DNA of 32,000 nt, taken from NCBI RefSeq assembly GCF_002075285.3, contig NZ_CP021983.2, positions 3,990,001 through 4,022,000 on the forward strand, in the 5' to 3' direction. The notes beneath the pieces were generated by a model, which saw only the letters and a list, made by a program, of their open reading frames with translations, ran no database searches and was not told the origin of the DNA. Within the stretch, counting starts at the first letter, position 1. Every line of letters begins with the position of its first letter. The stretch is from Halomicronema hongdechloris C2206 (lineage in GTDB: Bacteria; Cyanobacteriota; Cyanobacteriia; Phormidesmidales; Phormidesmidaceae). The position numbers and the translations under genes were made by a program. Of the stretch, positions 1 to 15,703 are shown one piece after another.

Positions 1-419
1 ATCACGGCGATAGCGGTCTGGAGATGGAACAGGCCACTGTATCCCAGGAAATGTAAGCGATGAAGATGCCATAGGATAAAAACTGCCAGGAATTAACAAC
101 GTTCAACCTGAACCCTGGCCGAATGTCGATGAACCGGTTCCAGAGGATGAAGAGCAGCGACTCCCTAACCTGCTACTACAGACCTGATTGGGCCCAGATT
201 GGTCCAGAACTGTTGCAGCGAATTAAGGGCATCAACTTAGCAAATAGTCTCCGAATCAGGGCACACCTGTTCCGAGACCTCTCAGTCGATGAGATACCCG
301 CTCTAGCTAACTAGGATGACCATAGGGACAAGACTAATCAGAGGGATACCAGCTCCCCTACAGATTAGGAGGTGCCGCGATAGATTTCCTAGTTGTGTCA
401 AGTAGATTGATATTTTGGA

Positions 420-746
420 GTGAAACTTAGCAGTTACTCAATGGTTAGACGAATTGGGTTAACGATTGTATGGTTAGGCTTCATTCTGTATGCATTTTTG
501 GCCGCCCCACCGGATCATCCCCAAACGCTGGATCTGATTTTGCGCCTGAGTCGTGGCGACTGGCGTGAGATTAACCCAGCCATCGTAGTGCTGCTGGTAC
601 CGACACCGTTGGGGGATGACATGGCCCGGCGGGGCATGAAGGGACGTTGGCCTTGGGCGGTGATGGCCGTACCGATGCTTGGAGCAATTGTCTATCTGAT
701 GCTGCGGCCCCCATTGCCTGCCAACGACTCGGCACTCATCCATTAA
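420..746 (+). CDS. hypothetical small membrane protein (108 aa)
   Basis: The ORF has hydrophobic segments (IGLTIVWLGFILYAFLAA; WPWAVMAVPMLGAIVYLML) consistent with 2-3 TM helices. The opposite-strand ORF 474..743 looks like a shadow. The track start is GTG at 420, with an alternative ATG at 441. I do not recognise a family. Confidence 0.45.
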   Translation: MKLSSYSMVRRIGLTIVWLGFILYAFLAAPPDHPQTLDLILRLSRGDWREINPAIVVLLVPTPLGDDMARRGMKGRWPWAVMAVPMLGAIVYLMLRPPLPANDSALIH

Positions 747-815
747 GCATGATCCTCTCAGACAATTTTCAGCCCATCTCAGTACGCTGAGGCCCAGTCC
801 CTAGTAGAGAACGCC

Positions 816-3113
816 ATGGAATCTCTTCGACCCATTGTTAAAGATCTGGTTCTGCTTGGGGGCGGTCATTCCCATGCCATTGTGCTGCGCCAGTGGGGGA
901 TGCGACCTTTGGCAGGGGTGCAGATCACCTTGATCACCAACCTGGCCGATACTCCCTACTCTGGCATGCTGCCGTCCCATGTGGCGGGTCTCTACGATTT
1001 TGATCAGGCTCATATTGACCTACGGCCCCTGACCCGTTTCGCTCAGGCCCGTCTCTTCATGGACCGAGTCATTGGTCTCGATTTAGAGCGGCGACGGGTC
1101 ATCTGTGCCCACCATCCCCCCGTCGCCTATGATGTTCTGTCCATTGATACGGGCAGTACCCCGGCGATGGTGGCAGTGCCTGGGGCAGCTGATCATGCTG
1201 TGCCGGCCAAGCCTGTCCCTCAGCTATTGCAGGCCTGGGCCAGGGTGCGCCAGCAGCTAGAGGCGTCACCAGAGCGGCCTCTCACCATCGCCGTGGTTGG
1301 TGGCGGCATCGGCGGGGTAGAACTGACCCTGAACATGCAGGCGCGGTTGCAGAGACGACTAAAAGAGCTAGGGCGGCCACAGGATCAGGTCACATTTCAT
1401 CTGTTTCATCGCCGGGCCGAACTGGCCCCGGAGCGGTCTCGGGCCACTCGTCATTATCTGCAGCGACTGTGCCTACGACGGCGAATTCAGCTGCACCTGC
1501 AGCAAACAGTTGCTGCGGTGGAGACTATTGGCGGACCTTTGCCCTATCGAGTGCGCTGTGAGTCGGGGTTGACAGTGGCGTGCGATCGCATATTTTGGGT
1601 CACCCAAGCGGCGGCTCCCGACTGGGTACGACAGTCTGGTCTGGCTAACGATTCCCAAGGGTTCATTGCCGTTGCCGATACCCTCCAGAGTCGCTCCCAC
1701 CCCAATGTGTTCGCCGCTGGAGATGTGGCCACCATGGTTAACCATCCCCGACCCAAGGCCGGAGTCTTCGCCGTGCGTCAGGGCAAACCATTAAGCCTTA
1801 ACCTGCGGCGCCACCTGCAAGGTCAACCGCTACAACCCTTCAGGCCTCAACGGCAATTCTTGACCCTGATCGATACGGGCCGCGGCACCGCCATCGCCTC
1901 CCGGGGGCCTTTCGTGGCCGAGTCCTGTCTATTCCGATACTGGAAAGACCACATCGATCAAAAATTCATGGCTCTGTTCCGCGACTTTCCCGAAATGGGG
2001 GCATCCCGCCCATCCGACGTCGTCGTTCGCTCAGCCTCCTCTCCCCCACCCATGTACTGTGCTGGCTGTGGTTCTAAGGTGGGGCGTCCTGCCCTAGAGC
2101 AAGTTCTACAGCGGATTCAGGCCGATGTCTCTTGGCCTGTAGACACCGCCGATATCCTAGTGGGGTTGACAGCAGCCGAGGATGCTGCAGTGGTGCGAGT
2201 TCCCCATGATCGAGCCATGGTCCATACCGCCGATGGCTTCCGTGCCCTCTTAGCGGATCCGTTTATCTGCGGCCAAATCGCTGTCCACCATAGCCTCAGC
2301 GATCTCTTCGCCATGGGAGCCACTCCCCAGTCAGTGCTAGCCTTGGCTACCGTGCCCTACGCCTTACCTGCCCAACAAACCGAGATACTCTACCAACTCC
2401 TCAGCGGCGTGCAGAAAGCCCTGAGCCAAAGCCACACCCCCCTGGTTGGCGGCCATACCAGCGAAGGTCCCGAGCTCGTCCTCAGTATTGTGGCCAATGG
2501 CTTAGCCCAGCCCCAACGGCTCCTGCGCAAGCAGGGCATGGCTCCCGGCGAGGTGCTGATCCTGACCAAGCCCCTAGGGACTGGCGTCCTATTTGCAGCC
2601 GACATGCGCCGCCAAGCCAAAGGCCGTTGGATCGAGGCCGCCGTTGCCGTCATGGTGCAATCCAATCAAGCCGCCGCTCAATGTTTGATCCAACACCAAG
2701 CCACCGCCTGCACCGATGTCACCGGCTTTGGGTTCATGGGCCATCTCTTAGAGCTGGTACAAGCGTCTCAAGTAGGGGCAGTGCTGACTTTAAACCAGCT
2801 GCCAGCACTCCAGGGAGCACGTCAAGTTCTGGCCCAAGGAGTCCGCAGTTCTCTCCATCCTCAGAATCAGACCGCTGCCCAGGCCATCGAGAATGGGGCT
2901 GATTATATCGATCACCCCGACTGGCCTCTGCTGTTTGATCCCCAGACTTCTGGTGGTCTACTAGCTGCCGTGCCCCCCGATCAAGTGGAGTCTTGTCTGG
3001 CGACCCTGCACCAAGCCGGATATGCCCACAGCCTGGTAGTAGGCCGGGTTATTCCTCGTGACAATCCCACCCAACCCATTAGGATCGAGGAATGGGGGAG
3101 GAGTGAAGAGTAA
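816..3113 (+). CDS. selD: fusion protein: NDH-2-like FAD/NAD(P) pyridine nucleotide-disulfide oxidoreductase domain (N-terminal) + selenide, water dikinase SelD (C-terminal)
   Basis: The 765-aa ORF has two dinucleotide-binding motifs in its N-terminal half (LVLLGGGHSHAIV, IAVVGGGIGGVE). The C-terminal half is SelD-like: an N-terminal CAGCGSK loop at nt 2058-2078 (Cys codon, not TGA), then LTAAEDAAVV, GGHTSEG and CTDVTGFG motifs typical of the SelD/PurM fold. Confidence 0.9.
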   Translation: MESLRPIVKDLVLLGGGHSHAIVLRQWGMRPLAGVQITLITNLADTPYSGMLPSHVAGLYDFDQAHIDLRPLTRFAQARLFMDRVIGLDLERRRVICAHHPPVAYDVLSIDTGSTPAMVAVPGAADHAVPAKPVPQLLQAWARVRQQLEASPERPLTIAVVGGGIGGVELTLNMQARLQRRLKELGRPQDQVTFHLFHRRAELAPERSRATRHYLQRLCLRRRIQLHLQQTVAAVETIGGPLPYRVRCESGLTVACDRIFWVTQAAAPDWVRQSGLANDSQGFIAVADTLQSRSHPNVFAAGDVATMVNHPRPKAGVFAVRQGKPLSLNLRRHLQGQPLQPFRPQRQFLTLIDTGRGTAIASRGPFVAESCLFRYWKDHIDQKFMALFRDFPEMGASRPSDVVVRSASSPPPMYCAGCGSKVGRPALEQVLQRIQADVSWPVDTADILVGLTAAEDAAVVRVPHDRAMVHTADGFRALLADPFICGQIAVHHSLSDLFAMGATPQSVLALATVPYALPAQQTEILYQLLSGVQKALSQSHTPLVGGHTSEGPELVLSIVANGLAQPQRLLRKQGMAPGEVLILTKPLGTGVLFAADMRRQAKGRWIEAAVAVMVQSNQAAAQCLIQHQATACTDVTGFGFMGHLLELVQASQVGAVLTLNQLPALQGARQVLAQGVRSSLHPQNQTAAQAIENGADYIDHPDWPLLFDPQTSGGLLAAVPPDQVESCLATLHQAGYAHSLVVGRVIPRDNPTQPIRIEEWGRSEE

Positions 3114-3144
3114 TGGAGTGGGGGAGTGGGAGAGTGGGGGAGTT
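3101..3144. repeat. imperfect tandem array of GAGT-initiated 7-9 nt units (GAGTGAA GAGTAATG GAGTGGGG GAGTGGGA GAGTGGGGG AGTT)
   Basis: Read directly from the sequence. The first units overlap the last codons and the TAA stop (3111-3113) of the selD fusion. Confidence 0.7.
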
Positions 3145-3154
3145 TTAAGTGCTT

Positions 3155-3186
3155 AGTGTTGAGTGTTGAGTGTTGAGTGTTGAGTT
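3155..3186. repeat. heptanucleotide tandem repeat AGTGTTG x4 plus a partial copy (STRR-like)
   Basis: Perfect copies at 3155-3161, 3162-3168, 3169-3175 and 3176-3182, then a partial AGTT. Confidence 0.95.
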
Positions 3187-3202
3187 CTCTAGATAGTGCT
3201 GC

Positions 3203-3232
3203 AATTCAAAATTCAAAATTCAAAATTCAAAA
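3203..3232. repeat. heptanucleotide tandem repeat AATTCAA x4 (STRR-like)
   Basis: Perfect copies at 3203-3209, 3210-3216, 3217-3223 and 3224-3230, then AA. Confidence 0.95.
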
Positions 3233-3331
3233 CTCACCCCCCCATCTTCCCACCCTATGCCCTCCAGGCAGGCTTCGCCTACGACTTCGCTCAGGGCAAG
3301 TCTCCCCATCCACCTGCCTGAACCGCTGATA

Positions 3332-9502: not shown

Positions 9503-12500
9503 CTAGCCCCTCGGTAACGGTGGCTGGTCAGCAATATGGGCCAGGTAATCTTGCAGGGCTTTAACGCTCAGGTCCTGTTGCTGTAGAGAGCGAATCGCCG
9601 CCGCCGTGGCAGTTGCTCCGGCAATGGTGGTAATGGTGGGGATTTTATAGGCTAGGGCCGTGCGGCGGATAATCCGGTCATCTTCTTGGGCTTCTCCACC
9701 CACTGGAGTGTTGATGATCAGCTGGATCTGACCATTTTTGATCCAATCCACTACGTTGGGCCGGCCCTCATGAATTTTAAGAATCCGATCCGCGGTGAGG
9801 CCATTTTCCTTCAAAATGCCCCGAGTCCCCGCGGTCGCCACCAGGGTAAAGCCCATAGTGGCCAAATCTTTGGCCACCGGGACAACGGCAGTCTTGTCCC
9901 GATCATTCATGGAGATGAACACAGTGCCCTGCTGGGGTAAGCGTTGATTAGCGGCTAACTCGGCCTTGGCAAAGGCCCGGCCAAAGTCGATGTCGATCCC
10001 CATGACTTCGCCAGTAGAGCGCATTTCGGGGCCTAGGATGGTGTCGGTGCCGGGGAACTTATCGAAGGGCAGCACGGCTTCTTTAACGGCAATGTGCTGG
10101 GGAATGACTTCTTCGGTCACCCCCAAGGCTGCTAGGGTCTGCCCTGCCATCACCCGCACCGCTACCTTGGCCAAGGGGATGCCAGTGGCTTTAGAGACAA
10201 AGGGCACGGTGCGGGAGGCGCGGGGGTTGGCCTCTAGAATAAAGACATGATCTGCCTGGACAGCATATTGAATGTTCATCAGGCCCACCACGTGTAGTTG
10301 TTGGGCCAGCTTCACCGTAGCTTCGCGGATCGTTTGCAGGGCCGCTTTACTCAAGGAGGTGGTGGGGATAGAGCAGGCCGAGTCTCCGGAGTGAATCCCA
10401 GCTTGTTCGATGTGCTCCATGATGCCACCAAGGACCACCTGGCCGGTGTGGTCTGCGATCGCATCCACATCCACTTCCACGGCATTCTCGAGGAATTTAT
10501 CGATCAAGATGGGGTGTTCTGGTTCCACCTGCACGGCATAGGTCATATACCGCTCTAGCTCGGCGTCAGAGTAAACAATCTCCATGGCCCGTCCCCCCAG
10601 CACATAGCTGGGTCGCACCACCACCGGGTACTTAATGGTTTGGGCCACCTGCAGGGCGGCTTCGTAGCTGCGAGCAATGCCATTGGGAGGCTGTTCAATG
10701 CCCAGTTGCCGCAGGATTTGCTCGAAGCGTTCCCGATCCTCGGCGGTGTCGATGGAATCAGGAGACGTGCCCCAAATCTTAGGGATGGGACCTGAGGGCG
10801 TTGCCTGCTCTAGGGAGGCTAGGTAGTGCTGTAAGGGCACCGCCAACTTCAGCGGTGTTTGCCCGCCAAATTGAATAATGATGCCCTCCGGTTGTTCCGC
10901 CTCGATGATATTGAGCACATCTTCTTTGGTCAGGGGCTCAAAATAGAGGCGATCGCTGGTGTCGTAGTCGGTGGAGACAGTTTCGGGGTTGGAGTTGACC
11001 ATGATCGTCTCAAACCCGTCGGCCCGCAGGGCATAGGAGGCATGGCAACAGCAGTAGTCAAACTCGATGCCCTGACCGATGCGGTTGGGACCGCCCCCGA
11101 GAATCATCACCTTCCGCCGTTGGGAGGGCAACACTTCCGACTCTGCCTCGTAGGTGGAGTAGTAGTAGGGGGTGAGGGCCTCAAACTCGGCGGCGCAGGT
11201 ATCGACGGTCTTGTACACCGGCAACACCCCCAACCCCTGGCGATAGGCTCGCACCTCGTCTTCACCGGCCTTGGTAGCATAGGCGATTTGCCGATCGCTA
11301 AACCCCTGGCGTTTGATGCCGTAGAATTGGGCAGTGGTTAGCTGGTTCAAGGGCGTGCGCTTGAGAAATTTTTCCGTGTCGAGAAGTTCTGCCAGTTTCT
11401 GTAGGAACCAGGGATCAATGCCAGTGAGTTCGTAGATCTCCTCTAGGGTGAGGCCCAGCTGCAGCGCTTGCCGCACGGTAAAGATGCGCTCGGGATGAGG
11501 CGTGCGCAGGCTGGCTTGGACTTGGGAGATGGTGGGTAACTTCTCGGTGCGATCGCATCCCCAACCCGCTCGCCCGGTCTCCAGCGACCGCAGCGCCTTC
11601 TGGAAAGACTCCTGAAAAGTACGGCCAATGGCCATAGCCTCGCCCACCGACTTCATCTGAGTCGTGAGCACCGGTTCTGCCCCCGGAAATTTCTCGAAGG
11701 CAAAGCGAGGTATCTTAGTGACTACATAGTCGATGGTGGGCTCAAAGCTTGCCGGAGTCTTCTTGGTAATGTCATTGGGAATCTCGTCCAGGGTGTACCC
11801 TACCGCCAACTTGGCCGCAAACTTAGCGATGGGAAACCCCGTCGCCTTCGAGGCTAGGGCCGAACTGCGAGACACCCGCGGGTTCATCTCGATCACCACT
11901 ACCTCACCATTCATTGGGTTCACCGCAAATTGGATGTTAGAGCCTCCCGTTTCCACCCCAATTTCCCGAATGATCTTGATAGAGGCATCCCGCAGTCGCT
12001 GATACTCTTTATCGGTCAAGGTTTGGGCTGGCGCCACCGTAATCGAATCTCCCGTGTGAATCCCCATGGGATCCAGGTTCTCAATGGAGCAAATGATCAC
12101 CACGTTATCGGCCAGGTCACGCATCACCTCCAGCTCATACTCCTTCCACCCCAACAAAGACTTCTCAATCAAGATCTGAGAGACCGGACTAGCATCGAGC
12201 CCCACCCGGGCCATCTCTTCGAACTCTTCCTGGTTGTAGGCAATACCACCTCCGGTCCCCCCCAGGGTGAACGCAGGTCGGATAATCAGAGGAAAGGCAC
12301 CGATCTGCTCGGCGATCTGTCGAGCTTCCACCATGGTCTCTGCCAATCCCGACGGACATACCGCCAGACCAATCCGAGCCATGGCCGCCTTGAACAACTT
12401 GCGGTCCTCGGCCATCTCAATGGCCGCTAAGTTGGCCCCAATTAGGGTGATCCCATAGCGCTCCAAGACTCCATTCTTAGCCAGCACTACCGCGATGTTG

Positions 12501-12787
12501 AGAGCCGTCTGTCCACCCATGGTGGGCAGCAGGGCATCAGGCCGCTCCTGAATGATGACCTTTTCCACCAACTCAGGCGTCAGGGGCTCAACGTAAGTGC
12601 GGTCGGCGGTCTCTGGATCGGTCATAATGGTGGCCGGGTTCGAGTTCACCAGCACCACCTCATACCCCTCTTCCCGCAGGGCTTTGCAGGCCTGAGTGCC
12701 AGAATAATCGAACTCGCAGGCCTGGCCAATGATGATGGGACCAGAACCAATCAATAAAATCTTCTCGATGTCGTCGCGACGAGGCAT
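9503..12787 (-). CDS. carB: carbamoyl-phosphate synthase large subunit
   Basis: The 1094-aa ORF has duplicated ATP-grasp halves and canonical CarB sequence throughout ([57 protein letters not shown]...). Confidence 0.97.
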
Positions 12788-13283: not shown

Positions 13284-13490
13284 TATATAGGTACTACTTC
13301 TCAAGATCTGACTCACCCTTCTATAGCTGAACACCTCGCCCCTAAGAAATCAATAAAAGCCATCGAGACCACAGCAACGATTGACGAAAGCGGACAACTA
13401 ACTCTCGATAATGTCTTGGCCGTTACCAAACCCCAGCGAGTACACCTCATTATTCTCATCGATGTCCGATTGCTCCGATGGGGGGAATGA
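13284..13490 (+). pseudogene. possible degenerate AbrB/MazE-like antitoxin-type ORF lacking a canonical start codon
   Basis: The open frame 13284-13490 translates to ..KSIKAIETTATIDESGQLTLDNVLAVTKPQRVHLIILIDV.. This resembles small cyanobacterial SpoVT/AbrB-like antitoxins (from memory). There is no ATG, GTG or TTG in frame, and a G6 run at 13480-13485 sits just before the stop. Confidence 0.25.
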
Positions 13491-13638
13491 TGTGATTGAG
13501 GATGCGATCTCCCAGTACGAACAAAACCAGGAGACTTAGGTACACTTCTGCAGACAGCTTTTTCTGGTGAGTTGATGGCTGATGGGTGCGATCGGGCTGT
13601 GGAGGGGGTGGGTGCGATCGTGGTGGCGTGACGTCTCG

Positions 13639-13663
13639 ATTGTCTACACACTGCGTAGACAAT
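13639..13663. promoter_or_regulatory. perfect 9-bp inverted repeat ATTGTCTAC-N7-GTAGACAAT upstream of the DUF433-brnT-brnA operon (candidate operator)
   Basis: Arms at 13639-13647 and 13655-13663, about 120 nt upstream of the ATG at 13782. A TAAAAT element lies at about 13745-13750. Confidence 0.3.
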
Positions 13664-13781
13664 TGCCCAATTCACTCCGCCCAACATTTGGAACACACTA
13701 TGTGCACAATGTTTTTTCTTCATCAGTTGGCTGAAGTGCGATCGCCTAAAATCGACCCATAAGCGTAAAAGACTAGCTGCC

Positions 13782-13985
13782 ATGACCGCTGAAGCACCTG
13801 TTATCCATAGGGACCCAGAGATCTTGGGCGGTACCCGCGTCTTTGTGGGCACGCGGGTACCGATGAAAACGCTACTCGATTACCTCGAAGTGGGCGATTC
13901 CCTCGATGAGTTTTTAGACTACTTTCCCAGTGTGGGCAGAGAGCAAGCGATCGCGGCGCTTGAGATGGATGCATCCAAACGCTAA
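13782..13985 (+). CDS. DUF433 domain protein (antitoxin-like, HTH)
   Basis: The 67-aa ORF has the typical DUF433 core DPEILGGTRVFVGTRVPMKTLLDYLEVGDSLDEFLDYFPSV. Confidence 0.85.
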   Translation: MTAEAPVIHRDPEILGGTRVFVGTRVPMKTLLDYLEVGDSLDEFLDYFPSVGREQAIAALEMDASKR

Positions 13986-13987
13986 CC

Positions 13988-14251
13988 ATGCCTACGTTTG
14001 AGTACGATGAAAACAAAAGCCAGTCAAACTTGGCGAAGCATGGCATCGACTTTGTGGAAGCCCAAAAACTGTGGGATGCCCCCAACACCTTTGTGATTCC
14101 TGCTAAAACCGAAGACGAAACCCGATTTTTGATCATCGGTAAGATAGGGGATAAGCATTGGACAGCAGTGATCACCTACCGAGGGCAGAATACGCGCATT
14201 ATTTCCGTTCGGCGATCGCGCAAAGAAGAGGTGGCATTCTATGAAGGCTAA
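13988..14251 (+). CDS. brnT: BrnT family toxin (DUF497)
   Basis: The 87-aa ORF reads FEYDENKSQSNLAKHGIDFVEAQKLW ... RIISVRRSRKEEVAFYE, the canonical BrnT pattern. It starts 2 nt after the DUF433 stop. Confidence 0.85.
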   Translation: MPTFEYDENKSQSNLAKHGIDFVEAQKLWDAPNTFVIPAKTEDETRFLIIGKIGDKHWTAVITYRGQNTRIISVRRSRKEEVAFYEG

Positions 14252-14468
14252 AGACTTCGACCAACAATTTGAGGATGGAGAAGACCTCACCCCCTACCTT
14301 GACCTCTCCCAGGCGAAGCGATTGGGGAGCGATCGGCAAAGCATCAGTATCGATCTTCCTGTCTGGCTGCTAGAGCGCATTAACGAAGAAGCCAACCGCT
14401 TAGGCACCACCGCTCAAGATGTGATTCAAACGTCTCTGGCAGAGCATCTTGCCGCCAGCGAGCCCTAA
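14241..14468 (+). CDS. brnA: BrnA antitoxin (CopG/RHH-like)
   Basis: The 75-aa ORF reads MKAKDFDQQFEDGEDLTPYLDLSQAKR ... IDLPVWLLERINEEANRLGTTAQDVIQTSLAEHL, the typical BrnA pattern. It overlaps brnT by 11 nt. Confidence 0.8.
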   Translation: MKAKDFDQQFEDGEDLTPYLDLSQAKRLGSDRQSISIDLPVWLLERINEEANRLGTTAQDVIQTSLAEHLAASEP

Positions 14469-14490
14469 TAAACTTCAACAATCCTGAAAT

Positions 14491-14724
14491 ATGGCAGAAG
14501 TGAATCAGCCTGAGCCGCATGAAACGCCGACGGAGGAAGCGATTGAAGGTATTCGACAGGGATTGCATGAAGCCTTAAGCGAGCAAACTATCCCTCTCGC
14601 AGATATGTGGAAAGACATTGATGTTGAGATGCCTGAGCGGGTTTCCGGTCTCTTGAAAGGAGAAGTAGGCGACACCTTTTTCGAACCGTTGCCGGAAGAA
14701 ATTCTCCGAGAATGGGAAGAGTAA
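14491..14724 (+). CDS. orphan antitoxin-like small acidic protein (77 aa)
   Basis: The C-terminus LLKGEVGDTFFEPLPEEILREWEE resembles the ..DDFDAPLPEE..W.. tail of DUF2281/VapB-type antitoxins that precede PIN toxins (from memory). No intact toxin follows. Confidence 0.5.
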   Translation: MAEVNQPEPHETPTEEAIEGIRQGLHEALSEQTIPLADMWKDIDVEMPERVSGLLKGEVGDTFFEPLPEEILREWEE

Positions 14725-14839: not shown

Positions 14840-15554
14840 GTGAACGAAGCCGAAACCCACACTGAACTCATCGACCCCGCCCGCCGCGCTGCTGGCTGGG
14901 ACGTCGTCGAGGGGAGTCGAGTTCGCCGCGAAGTCATCGCCCCTGGTCGCCTCGGCGGGGGAGGCCGCCGGGCCAAGCCCGAATTTGCCGACTACGTGCT
15001 CGTCTATCGCGGCCACAAACTCGCCGTCATCGAAGCCAAAAGGCACGCGAAGGCGTCGGCCAGGCCAAAAAATACGCCCCAAAGCTAGAAACCCGCTTCG
15101 CCTATTCTAATAACGGTGATGGCATTTACCAGATCGATAGGCGCACCGGGGCCAAAGGCACCATCCGCCAGTACCTCACCCCCGCCGACCTGTGGGAGAC
15201 CACCTACAGCGAAGAGAATCGGTGGCGCGATCGCTTCGCCGATGTGCCCTTTGAAGACAAAAGCGGCACCTGGGAAGCCCGCTACTACCAGCACAACGCC
15301 ATTTCCCATGTGCTCGAAGCTATCTGCGAGGGGCGCGACAGAATCTTGCTCACTATGGCCACTGGCACCGGCAAAACCTTCGTCGCCTTCCAGTTCACCT
15401 GAAAACTCTTCCAAGTAAGCTGCCGCAACTCCTAGAGTTGAAGTATTGCGGACTGAAGGATGCCGTCAGGGAATTAGGGAACATATCAACTATCAGTGAG
15501 GTGTTTATCGGATTTCAGAAGTATCTATATTCCCAAGAAGACACCGCTGAATGA
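14840..15554 (+). pseudogene. hsdR: type I restriction enzyme R subunit (HsdR) remnant: frameshift, nonsense codon and large internal deletion
   Basis: There are three pieces in three frames. (a) 14840 to about 15045: MNEAETHTELIDPARRAAGWDVVEGSRVRREV...YVLVYRGHKLAVIEAK, the HsdR N-terminal domain. (b) About 15049-15402 in a different frame: EGVGQAKKYAPKLETRFAYSNNGDGIYQID...ARYYQHNAISHVLEAICEGRDRILLTMATGTGKTFVAFQFT, with helicase motif I. It ends at TGA (15400-15402) where W is expected before KLFQ. (c) 15420-15554 in the third frame: LPQLLELKYCGLKDAVRELGNISTISEVFIGFQKYLY, an EcoEI_R_C-like C-terminal tail. About 715 nt remain of a gene that is normally at least 2.4 kb. Confidence 0.8.
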
Positions 15555-15629
15555 GGCACCATACTATCTAAAGAATCCTCATTATCGATTTGGGTTACGC
15601 CTGTGGGGCTGGGCTATAAAGCTAGCTAG

Positions 15630-15703
15630 GGCGAACGACGGGACTCGAACCCGCGAATGGTGGAACCACAATCCACTGCCTTAACCACTTGGCCACGCTC
15701 GCC
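15630..15703 (-). tRNA. tRNA-His (anticodon GUG) with genomically encoded G-1; CCA not encoded
   Basis: The minus strand reads G-GCGAGCG-TG-GCCAAGTGGTTAAGGC-A-GTGGA-TTGTGGT-TCCAC-CATTC-GCGGG-TTCGAGT-CCCGT-CGTTCGC-C. The acceptor stem has 7 bp (one G-U). The anticodon loop UUGUGGU gives GUG, and G-1 sits opposite the discriminator C73. Confidence 0.9.

Follow-up and report, generated by a model that had tools for sequence, protein, structure and literature searches.

Why does a gene for a DUF433 protein stand directly in front of a brnTA toxin–antitoxin (TA) pair? The question is raised by a stretch of 32,000 nucleotides (nt) from Halomicronema hongdechloris C2206 (contig NZ_CP021983.2, positions 3,990,001 to 4,022,000; called the window in the following), in which a DUF433 gene is followed by the toxin gene brnT and the antitoxin gene brnA. 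A preliminary description of this DNA had offered two explanations, either that the DUF433 gene lost its own toxin and was captured or that the three proteins form a tripartite system. We favor the first one and suggest with moderate confidence that an orphan DUF433 gene was fused by a deletion to the head of an ordinary brnTA pair and that it probably supplies the promoter of this pair. The arrangement looks like the product of local gene shuffling rather than a new three-part system.

A junction common to two lineages

The family assignments of DUF433, BrnT, and BrnA are far above chance, as all three proteins exceed curated cut-offs (Table 1), and the coordinates confirm the tight spacing of the genes that had been pointed out before. 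The stop codon TAA of the DUF433 gene (13983–13985) is followed by CC and then by the ATG of brnT at position 13988, which leaves a gap of 2 nt. The genes brnT and brnA overlap by 11 nt (14241–14251), the toxin gene coming first and the gene of the ribbon–helix–helix (RHH) antitoxin second. The DUF433 protein has the sequence of XM38_037880, and BrnT has that of XM38_037890.

The toxin–antitoxin part of the module has a counterpart in the BrnT/BrnA pair of Brucella abortus (work of Heaton et al. 2012, to which PMC5086665 and PMC11980606 refer). There the two proteins assemble into a 2:2 complex and the system is autoregulating (PMC5086665; PMC11980606), and the RNase activity of Brucella BrnT requires Asp6, Glu7, Lys9, Arg41, and Glu78 (PMC5086665). 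The BrnT protein of the window has D7-E8-x-K10 in its N-terminal motif and in addition R46 and E80/E81, which may correspond to these residues; its match to the BrnT structure PDB 3U97 is weak (19.7 bits). By analogy the pair of the window should act as in Brucella, with a ribonuclease toxin, an RHH antitoxin, a 2:2 complex, and autoregulation. The core of the module would be an ordinary type II TA pair, in which the RelE-fold ribonuclease BrnT blocks translation and BrnA, carrying a C-terminal RHH DNA-binding domain, neutralises it. Like the Brucella genes, those of the window are a toxin-first bicistron with overlapping genes and a C-terminal RHH-type region in BrnA. Unlike there, brnT has no leader of its own but a DUF433 gene 2 nt before its ATG, an ORF (open reading frame) for the C-terminal half of RelN lies 3′ of brnA, and the setting is a type I restriction–modification (R-M) locus.

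The same DUF433–brnT junction is present in five metagenome contigs (L102–L106), which were assembled independently from JGI and ENA samples and which encode a BrnT (P0126) 94% identical to that of the window. As these contigs differ by only 0–1 nt, they represent one population. They contain a 67-amino-acid (aa) DUF433 protein ending in EMDASKR, followed after 2 nt by brnT and then by brnA. Window positions 13738–14611 and L102 positions 2251–3124 are 87.2% identical over 874 nt, and the junction sequence is identical in both apart from the stop codon, TAA in the window and TAG in L102. The islet of L102–L106 contains hsdS and hsdR and, upstream of DUF433, a frameshifted 5′ remnant of brnA. 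According to the preliminary description, an adjacency found in this genome only would have suggested chance; the shared junction overturns the notion that the adjacency is unique to H. hongdechloris. A chance juxtaposition or an assembly artefact limited to one genome, for which the first surveys without a second example had spoken, is refuted by the five independently assembled contigs and is hardly credible.

These surveys comprised nine DUF433 loci, 91 BrnT loci, and motif scans. None of the 91 BrnT loci had a DUF433 gene directly adjoining brnT, the metagenome collection used being without the L102–L106 contigs; in three of the 91 a DUF433 gene lies 1.3 kb away in an integrase-linked array. 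A degenerate DNA pattern for tight DUF433–BrnT adjacency gave no true match in 185,579 genomes (0 with CAC-His, 1 with CAT-His) and 0 and 0 matches in the IMG/VR viral contigs. The sole CAT-His match (L016) was rejected as a chance match, since its upstream ORF is without a DUF433 domain and the two DUF433 motifs are in different frames. The motifs of the pattern match 117 of 120 close DUF433 homologs and 93 of 120 close BrnT homologs, their sensitivity for distant members not being established, and H. hongdechloris itself was apparently absent from the scanned genomes, as no self-match was seen. In a plasmid collection a distant blastn search yielded two matches, both to brnT only. The L102 lineage had escaped all this because its BrnT has KHN instead of the KHG of the pattern, its DUF433 protein was inside a 90% cluster under P0009, and its contigs were outside the collection. 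As this lineage was missed, the negative surveys are weaker than they looked. The three-gene synteny is found in two lineages with one common junction and is missing in L101, L005–L015, L017, and 80 further BrnT loci.

The BrnT protein of the second lineage (L102:2501–2764) has private changes in its most conserved N-terminal motif, KHG to KHN, plus A16D, and these changes may have attenuated the toxin.

Purifying selection acts on each of the three ORFs. For brnT dN/dS is 0.03–0.10 (0.08 versus L102) and for brnA 0.06–0.07 (0.07 versus L102). The DUF433 genes of the window and L102 differ by 9 synonymous and 5 non-synonymous changes, corresponding to an omega of 0.15, and omega versus other DUF433 genes is 0.04–0.12 (0.12 versus L100, a cyanobacterial metagenome-assembled genome).

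Origin of the junction

The closest BrnT homologs (94–97% identical) are from metagenome contigs in which intact type I R-M operons enclose brnT. For most close relatives, the gene preceding brnT is either hsdS, at a distance of 32 nt, or another small gene that occupies this slot. L017 (BrnT 85% identical) has hsdS, the 32-nt spacer, and brnT. The other orders are hsdM-(GIY-YIG)-hsdS-74aa (DUF2281-like)-brnT-BrnA(N35)::570aa-hsdR in L005–L012, hsdM-hsdS-362aa-brnT-brnA-RelN′-... in L013–L015, hsdS tail-brnT-brnA-RelN′-hsdR in L101, and hsdS′-DUF2281-like-PIN-[brnA 5′ remnant]-DUF433-full RelN-hsdR in L100. Nucleotide alignments reveal that the 32 nt separating the hsdS tail from brnT are homologous in L017, L013, L005, and L101, and this spacer is taken to be the ancestral state. 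The homology of the window to the brnTA loci without DUF433 ends at the hsdS stop codon (13631) and resumes at 13985/13988, that is at the brnT ATG. In place of the 32-nt spacer stand 355 nt with a palindrome and the DUF433 gene.

The DUF433 protein belongs to a highly conserved cyanobacterial subfamily with about 80% identity across orders; the profile of its close homologs matches PDB 2GA1 weakly, and a PDB sequence search with the protein alone gave nothing. It retains the winged-helix core, and after residue 61 its tail is replaced by MDASKR (ending in EMDASKR). From this residue on it is unlike 111–116 of 119 relatives, residues 62–67 being rare or unseen among these homologs, and the nucleotide homology to other DUF433 genes stops at about 13964. 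The C-terminal tail of the paired relatives (ending in LAKEMLTAYANPA in the 74-aa forms and in ELAKEMLTAYANPA in the 74–75-aa members) is missing. Such paired relatives (L004, L003) are 74–75 aa long and overlap a DUF5615/PIN_10 gene. Orphan genes are also common in the subfamily (L001, L002, L098, L100), and many of the orphan C-termini diverge right after AALEL, the point at which the window protein breaks. No DUF5615/PIN remnant turned up when the window was searched by tblastn, the queries being three DUF5615 proteins and a PIN protein, and the gene 3′ of DUF433 is brnT.

The DUF433 protein shares its domain with VapB10 of the VapB10/VapC10 pair (ssr2962/slr1767) and with other cyanobacterial DUF433(COG2442)–PIN pairs (PMC3834315; PMC2701414), and close relatives (L003, L004) have the DUF5615/PIN_10 partner. 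Unlike VapB10, the window protein has neither a PIN-like partner nor the tail of the paired members, and an unrelated RelE-fold toxin comes next. In this respect it resembles ssr2784a and ssl5025, two stand-alone DUF433 genes of Synechocystis 6803 without cognate toxin (PMC4963859); those are solitary, whereas the gene of the window is coupled to the start of another TA pair. That the gene lost its own toxin and was captured, as one of the two initial explanations had it, fits the missing tail, the lack of a DUF5615/PIN remnant, the restart of homology at the brnT ATG, and the reordering of the islet genes in relatives.

We suggest that a deletion in the last ancestor shared by H. hongdechloris and the L102 lineage took away the C-terminal tail of the DUF433 (VapB-type) gene, the gene or genes downstream of it, and the 5′ leader of brnT. 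This deletion would have left the DUF433 stop codon 2 nt from the brnT ATG. If the brnT leader was removed in this way, transcription of brnTA must come from upstream, and the 2-nt gap together with the 11-nt overlap makes a single transcript likely. The three genes would most likely be transcribed from the promoter of DUF433 itself, and translation of brnT would be coupled to the termination of DUF433. A plausible −10 element of this putative promoter is the hexamer TAAAAT at 13747–13752 in the DUF433 leader; the aligned hexamer of both L102 and L100 reads TAAGAT. A leaderless brnT promoter in the 3′ end of DUF433 was considered and rejected, as no −10-like hexamer is found at −12 to −7.

Further upstream the preliminary description had noticed a perfect 9-bp inverted repeat as a possible operator. 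The repeat itself is real (ATTGTCTAC-N7-GTAGACAAT at 13639–13663; 12-nt arms match at 92%). By itself it is only mildly notable, because perfect inverted repeats of this kind (9 bp or longer, spacer up to 10 nt) occur four times in the window compared with 1.5 ± 1.6 times in shuffled sequences. A third half-site, GTGCACAAT at 13702–13710, is in direct repeat with the right arm of the palindrome. Three half-sites fall within 72 nt, whereas the average over the loci is roughly one in 16 kb, a figure that is inflated as the motif was defined post hoc. Palindrome and third half-site lie in a private 106-nt stretch (Table 1), for which no homolog was found in any compared locus or elsewhere in the window. 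This stretch is missing from L102–L106, which carry the same operon, and the half-site motif is not found upstream of nine other DUF433 genes or six brnT genes. We therefore reject the palindrome as an operator of the family.

Role of the DUF433 gene

What does the DUF433 protein contribute to the operon? VapB10, a DUF433 antitoxin, binds and activates its own promoter (PMC3834315). The protein of the window keeps the DNA-binding core only, and it may act on its own promoter like VapB10 and in doing so set the level of brnTA as a by-product. A neutralisation of BrnT by DUF433 is not expected. L100 has a DUF433 protein with 83% aa identity to that of the window in the same hsdS–hsdR islet, though in a different gene order and with a destroyed brnTA; thus DUF433 is a resident of the islet which is able to persist without brnTA.

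On the contrary, in a true three-component module the winged-helix DUF433 protein would be a dedicated transcriptional controller of BrnTA or a second neutraliser. The part of this proposal that has stood is that the adjacency is not unique, the 2-nt coupling being kept in two lineages which are 13% apart in nucleotides; however, the junction arose only once, and DUF433 is missing from the sister lineages with 94–97% identical BrnT (L101, L005–L015). Selection can be read both ways, as the omega of 0.15 and the presence of all consensus residues in the sister copy speak for such a module, whereas in H. hongdechloris three positions with 97–98% invariance carry private substitutions. The original brnT leader, the expected site of a BrnA-controlled promoter, is gone, so that control must come from the DUF433 side, but the DUF433 gene of L100 persists beside a destroyed brnTA. 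Single ORFs joining the BrnA N-terminus (N32) to DUF433 exist in three related sequences, yet none of the 91 BrnT loci has an adjacent DUF433 gene and neither the 185,579 genomes nor IMG/VR gave a true match. VapB10 proves that a DUF433 protein can bind a promoter (PMC3834315), but the neighbours of COG2442 (DUF433) in the survey of Makarova et al. are of the PIN family only (PMC2701414). We consider such a module unlikely; a new kind of system is not established and the tripartite reading is unsupported.

Three-component TA operons with a separate regulator are known from omega–epsilon–zeta and paaR2–paaA2–parE2, in which the antitoxin has no DNA-binding domain and the synteny is conserved family-wide. 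The window resembles them in gene order only, with a DNA-binding protein preceding a TA pair in what is apparently one operon. Unlike in these systems, BrnA has an RHH domain of its own and the arrangement is limited to one small clade.

None of the private substitutions of the window copy (P19R, A37V, and H47Y) occurs in any of the 119 homologs, and they lead to another alternative, namely that the DUF433 ORF of H. hongdechloris is a decaying relic without protein function, of which only the DNA, as promoter and translated leader, matters to brnTA. The loss of the tail and of the partner toxin and the pseudogene pieces crowding the surrounding islet would fit such a decay, but the ORF is intact and its pairwise omega is well under 1. 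When the changes are polarised with outgroups, the ratio of non-synonymous to synonymous changes is 4:3 on the window branch and 1:4 on the L102 branch, a contrast without statistical significance (Fisher p = 0.29). As 6 of 120 DUF433 homologs likewise deviate at three conserved columns, the window copy is not extreme. A relaxation of DUF433 in H. hongdechloris is a hint, no more, and we regard a functionless relic as quite improbable.

Within the DUF433 coding sequence a perfect 12-bp inverted repeat (GGTRVFVGTRVP, 13829–13840 / 13851–13862) was observed, which owes its full match to the private P19R codon change from CCC to CGC. This change may be a templated mutation of the quasi-palindrome type.

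Several points weigh against the reading that we prefer, the captured orphan gene. No Shine–Dalgarno sequence is evident ahead of brnT, and a consensus scan found no full sigma-70 site and no canonical −35/−10 pair. The order of events, that is of insertion, duplication, and deletion, has been reconstructed from only five or six lineages. The L102 copy of DUF433 keeps every consensus residue at an omega of 0.15, which means that DUF433 is kept for some function here that could exceed the role of a by-product. Finally, three diverged sequences of the P0009 cluster (P0243, P0247, and P0252) combine BrnA residues 1–32, a 12-residue linker, and a full-length DUF433 of the 74-aa type in one ORF. 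Such ORFs are either hybrid antitoxins or artefacts of gene calling across a brnA′–DUF433 junction, a junction that is also present in L100 and L102, and they hint that function links DUF433 to the BrnT system more closely than mere neighbourhood would. One may go further and imagine that the DUF433 core has been co-opted as a clade-specific controller of brnTA and that the three sister-lineage ORFs are hybrid antitoxins in which the RHH domain was swapped for DUF433; such a co-option appears rather doubtful to us.

A shuffled and decayed R-M islet

The module is part of an islet of about 2.8 kb between carB and tRNA-His, which is a decayed type I R-M/TA locus (Table 1); farther out the flanks consist of housekeeping genes (DUF4359, CbiX, tetrapyrrole methylase, deformylase, and glutamate dehydrogenase). 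The preliminary description had passed over the fourth co-oriented ORF (14491–14724), the hsdS tail, the hsdR pieces, and the tRNA-His gene. The type I R-M set is incomplete, as hsdM was not found in the window and hsdS and hsdR are present only as remnants. The hsdR fragments match Pfam HSDR_N and ResIII and the NCBIfam EcoAI-type R subunit, with tblastn matches in two frames. The islet adjoins tRNA-His, a typical site of island insertion, and no integrase is left in the window. An Rfam scan of the window gave the tRNA only, PADLOC recognised neither the window proteins nor the two proteins of 606 aa and 362 aa from the slot described below, and the antisense ORFs 13313–13852 and 13801–14175 have no family match.

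Table 1. Features of the islet and its borders (window coordinates)
Feature	Position	Strand	Evidence and remarks
carB	9503–12787	−	left-hand neighbour of the islet
second brnA copy, 3′-end remnant	13287–13340	+	tblastn with BrnA residues 54–71, 61% identity; blastn versus brnA 3′ end of L017/L102, 73.6%
relN antitoxin gene, N-terminal AbrB-like half, severed from the C-terminal half	13353–13463	+	89% identical to residues 1–37 of full-length L100 RelN; NCBIfam RelN model positions 2–37
relN-like C-terminal tail fragment, ending in GNDVIEDAISQYEQNQET before the stop	13477–13539	+	87% nt identity to L013 3663–3794; tblastn
hsdS 3′ tail remnant, last ~29 codons, ending in FSGELMADGCDRAVEGVGAIVVA before the stop (TGA 13629–13631)	13542–13631	+	blastn and tblastn versus hsdS ends of L005–L012, L017, L100
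private 106-nt stretch	13632–13737		palindrome (13639–13663) and third half-site (13702–13710)
conserved DUF433 leader, 44 nt	13738–13781	+	HIP1 site (GCGATCGC, 13738–13745) at the start, where the L102 homology sets in (13738)
DUF433 (COG2442) gene, 67 aa	13782–13985	+	PF04255, 57.5 bits (cut-off 23.6)
brnT, 87 aa	13988–14251	+	PF04365 (COG2929/DUF497), 92.6 bits (cut-off 34.5), profile positions 1–77 of 77
brnA, 75 aa, C-terminal RHH domain	14241–14468	+	NCBIfam equivalog NF047399, 88.2 bits (cut-off 60); PF12441 CopG_antitoxin, 33.6 (cut-off 28)
chimeric 77-aa ORF: RelN C-terminal half (14497–14628) and DUF2281-like C-terminal tail (14638–14718)	14491–14724	+	tblastn
hsdR pseudogene, N-terminal ~196 codons only, frameshift near 15025–15043	14840–15414	+	80–85% nt identity to hsdR of L005–L013, L100–L105
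tRNA-His (GTG)	15629–15702	−	ARAGORN; Rfam tRNA 60 bits; right-hand islet boundary

The relN sequence is present as two halves, which are 1 kb apart and flank the hsdS tail, DUF433, brnT, and brnA. As the N-terminal half is 89% and the C-terminal half 68% identical to RelN of L100, the two halves probably derive from different copies. The chimeric ORF at 14491–14724 matches the NCBIfam RelN model (NF050107) at positions 38–79 only, with 46.2 bits below the cut-off of 70, and it has no partner toxin. Wherever a lineage has brnA intact and its sequence extends past this gene (L013, L015, L101, and L102), an ORF for the RelN C-terminal half is found 3′ of brnA.

In this clade brnTA is located between hsdS and hsdR of a type I R-M locus, in a slot in which other small antitoxin-type genes are gathered and shuffled as well. 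Among the variable occupants of the slot are unknown proteins of 362 aa and 606 aa and a protein of 472 aa in L102 (L102:597–2015), which has Schlafen/AlbA_2 and HATPase_c_4 domains and is encoded between hsdS and the TA genes. In L005–L012 (e.g., L005:3254–5074) brnT is intact (97% identical), but brnA breaks off after codon 35 and continues as a region of 570 residues, which has no Pfam, NCBIfam, or PADLOC match. The resulting 606-aa ORF begins with the BrnA N-terminus and in L008 runs on into hsdR. As these loci have no RHH-type BrnA, it may be that residues 1–35 of BrnA are enough to restrain BrnT there. A different setting is seen in L029, L037, and L038 (about 1–3300), where a tyrosine-recombinase gene is followed by a cassette-like array on one strand with an N-terminally truncated DUF433, an Xre-type helix–turn–helix protein, PhD/YoeB, and BrnT/BrnA.

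The breakpoints of these rearrangements are found at HIP1-like GCGATCG sites (window 13738–13745, 14327–14335, 13588–13596, and 13614–13622; L100 1958–1962; L005 ~3358). They comprise the left end of the L102 homology, brnA codons 30–32 (L100, L102, L005–L012, and P0243), and the duplicated hsdS tails which flank the cassettes. This coincidence suggests that the rearrangements occurred by microhomology-guided recombination. A comparable locus is the pneumococcal tvr locus, in which phd-doc homologs (tvrAT) lie in a type I R-M locus with shuffling by direct repeats (PMC6265443). As in tvr, the TA genes are located between hsdM/hsdS and hsdR, and hsdS-derived repeats, here the duplicated hsdS 3′ tails, flank the rearranging segments. 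Unlike in tvr, the loci of the cyanobacteria show no recombinase gene, the breakpoints are at HIP1-like GCGATCG sites, and the locus of H. hongdechloris is decayed.

According to the history proposed here, the H. hongdechloris lineage later lost hsdM together with the greater part of hsdS and hsdR, and the TA genes stayed intact, which we would attribute to addiction, as a loss of the antitoxin would be harmful. If an orphan gene was indeed captured in this way, TA genes can outlive the defence island that carried them, and a TA pair can obtain its first cistron, and the promoter with it, from an unrelated orphan antitoxin gene. The hsdS–hsdR interval in this cyanobacterial clade is a shuffling ground for small antitoxin-type genes with breakpoints at duplicated hsdS tails and HIP1-like sites. 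The value of the locus is that it documents modular toxin–antitoxin evolution and that its four small genes offer a cheap test bed for the cross-regulation of unrelated modules.

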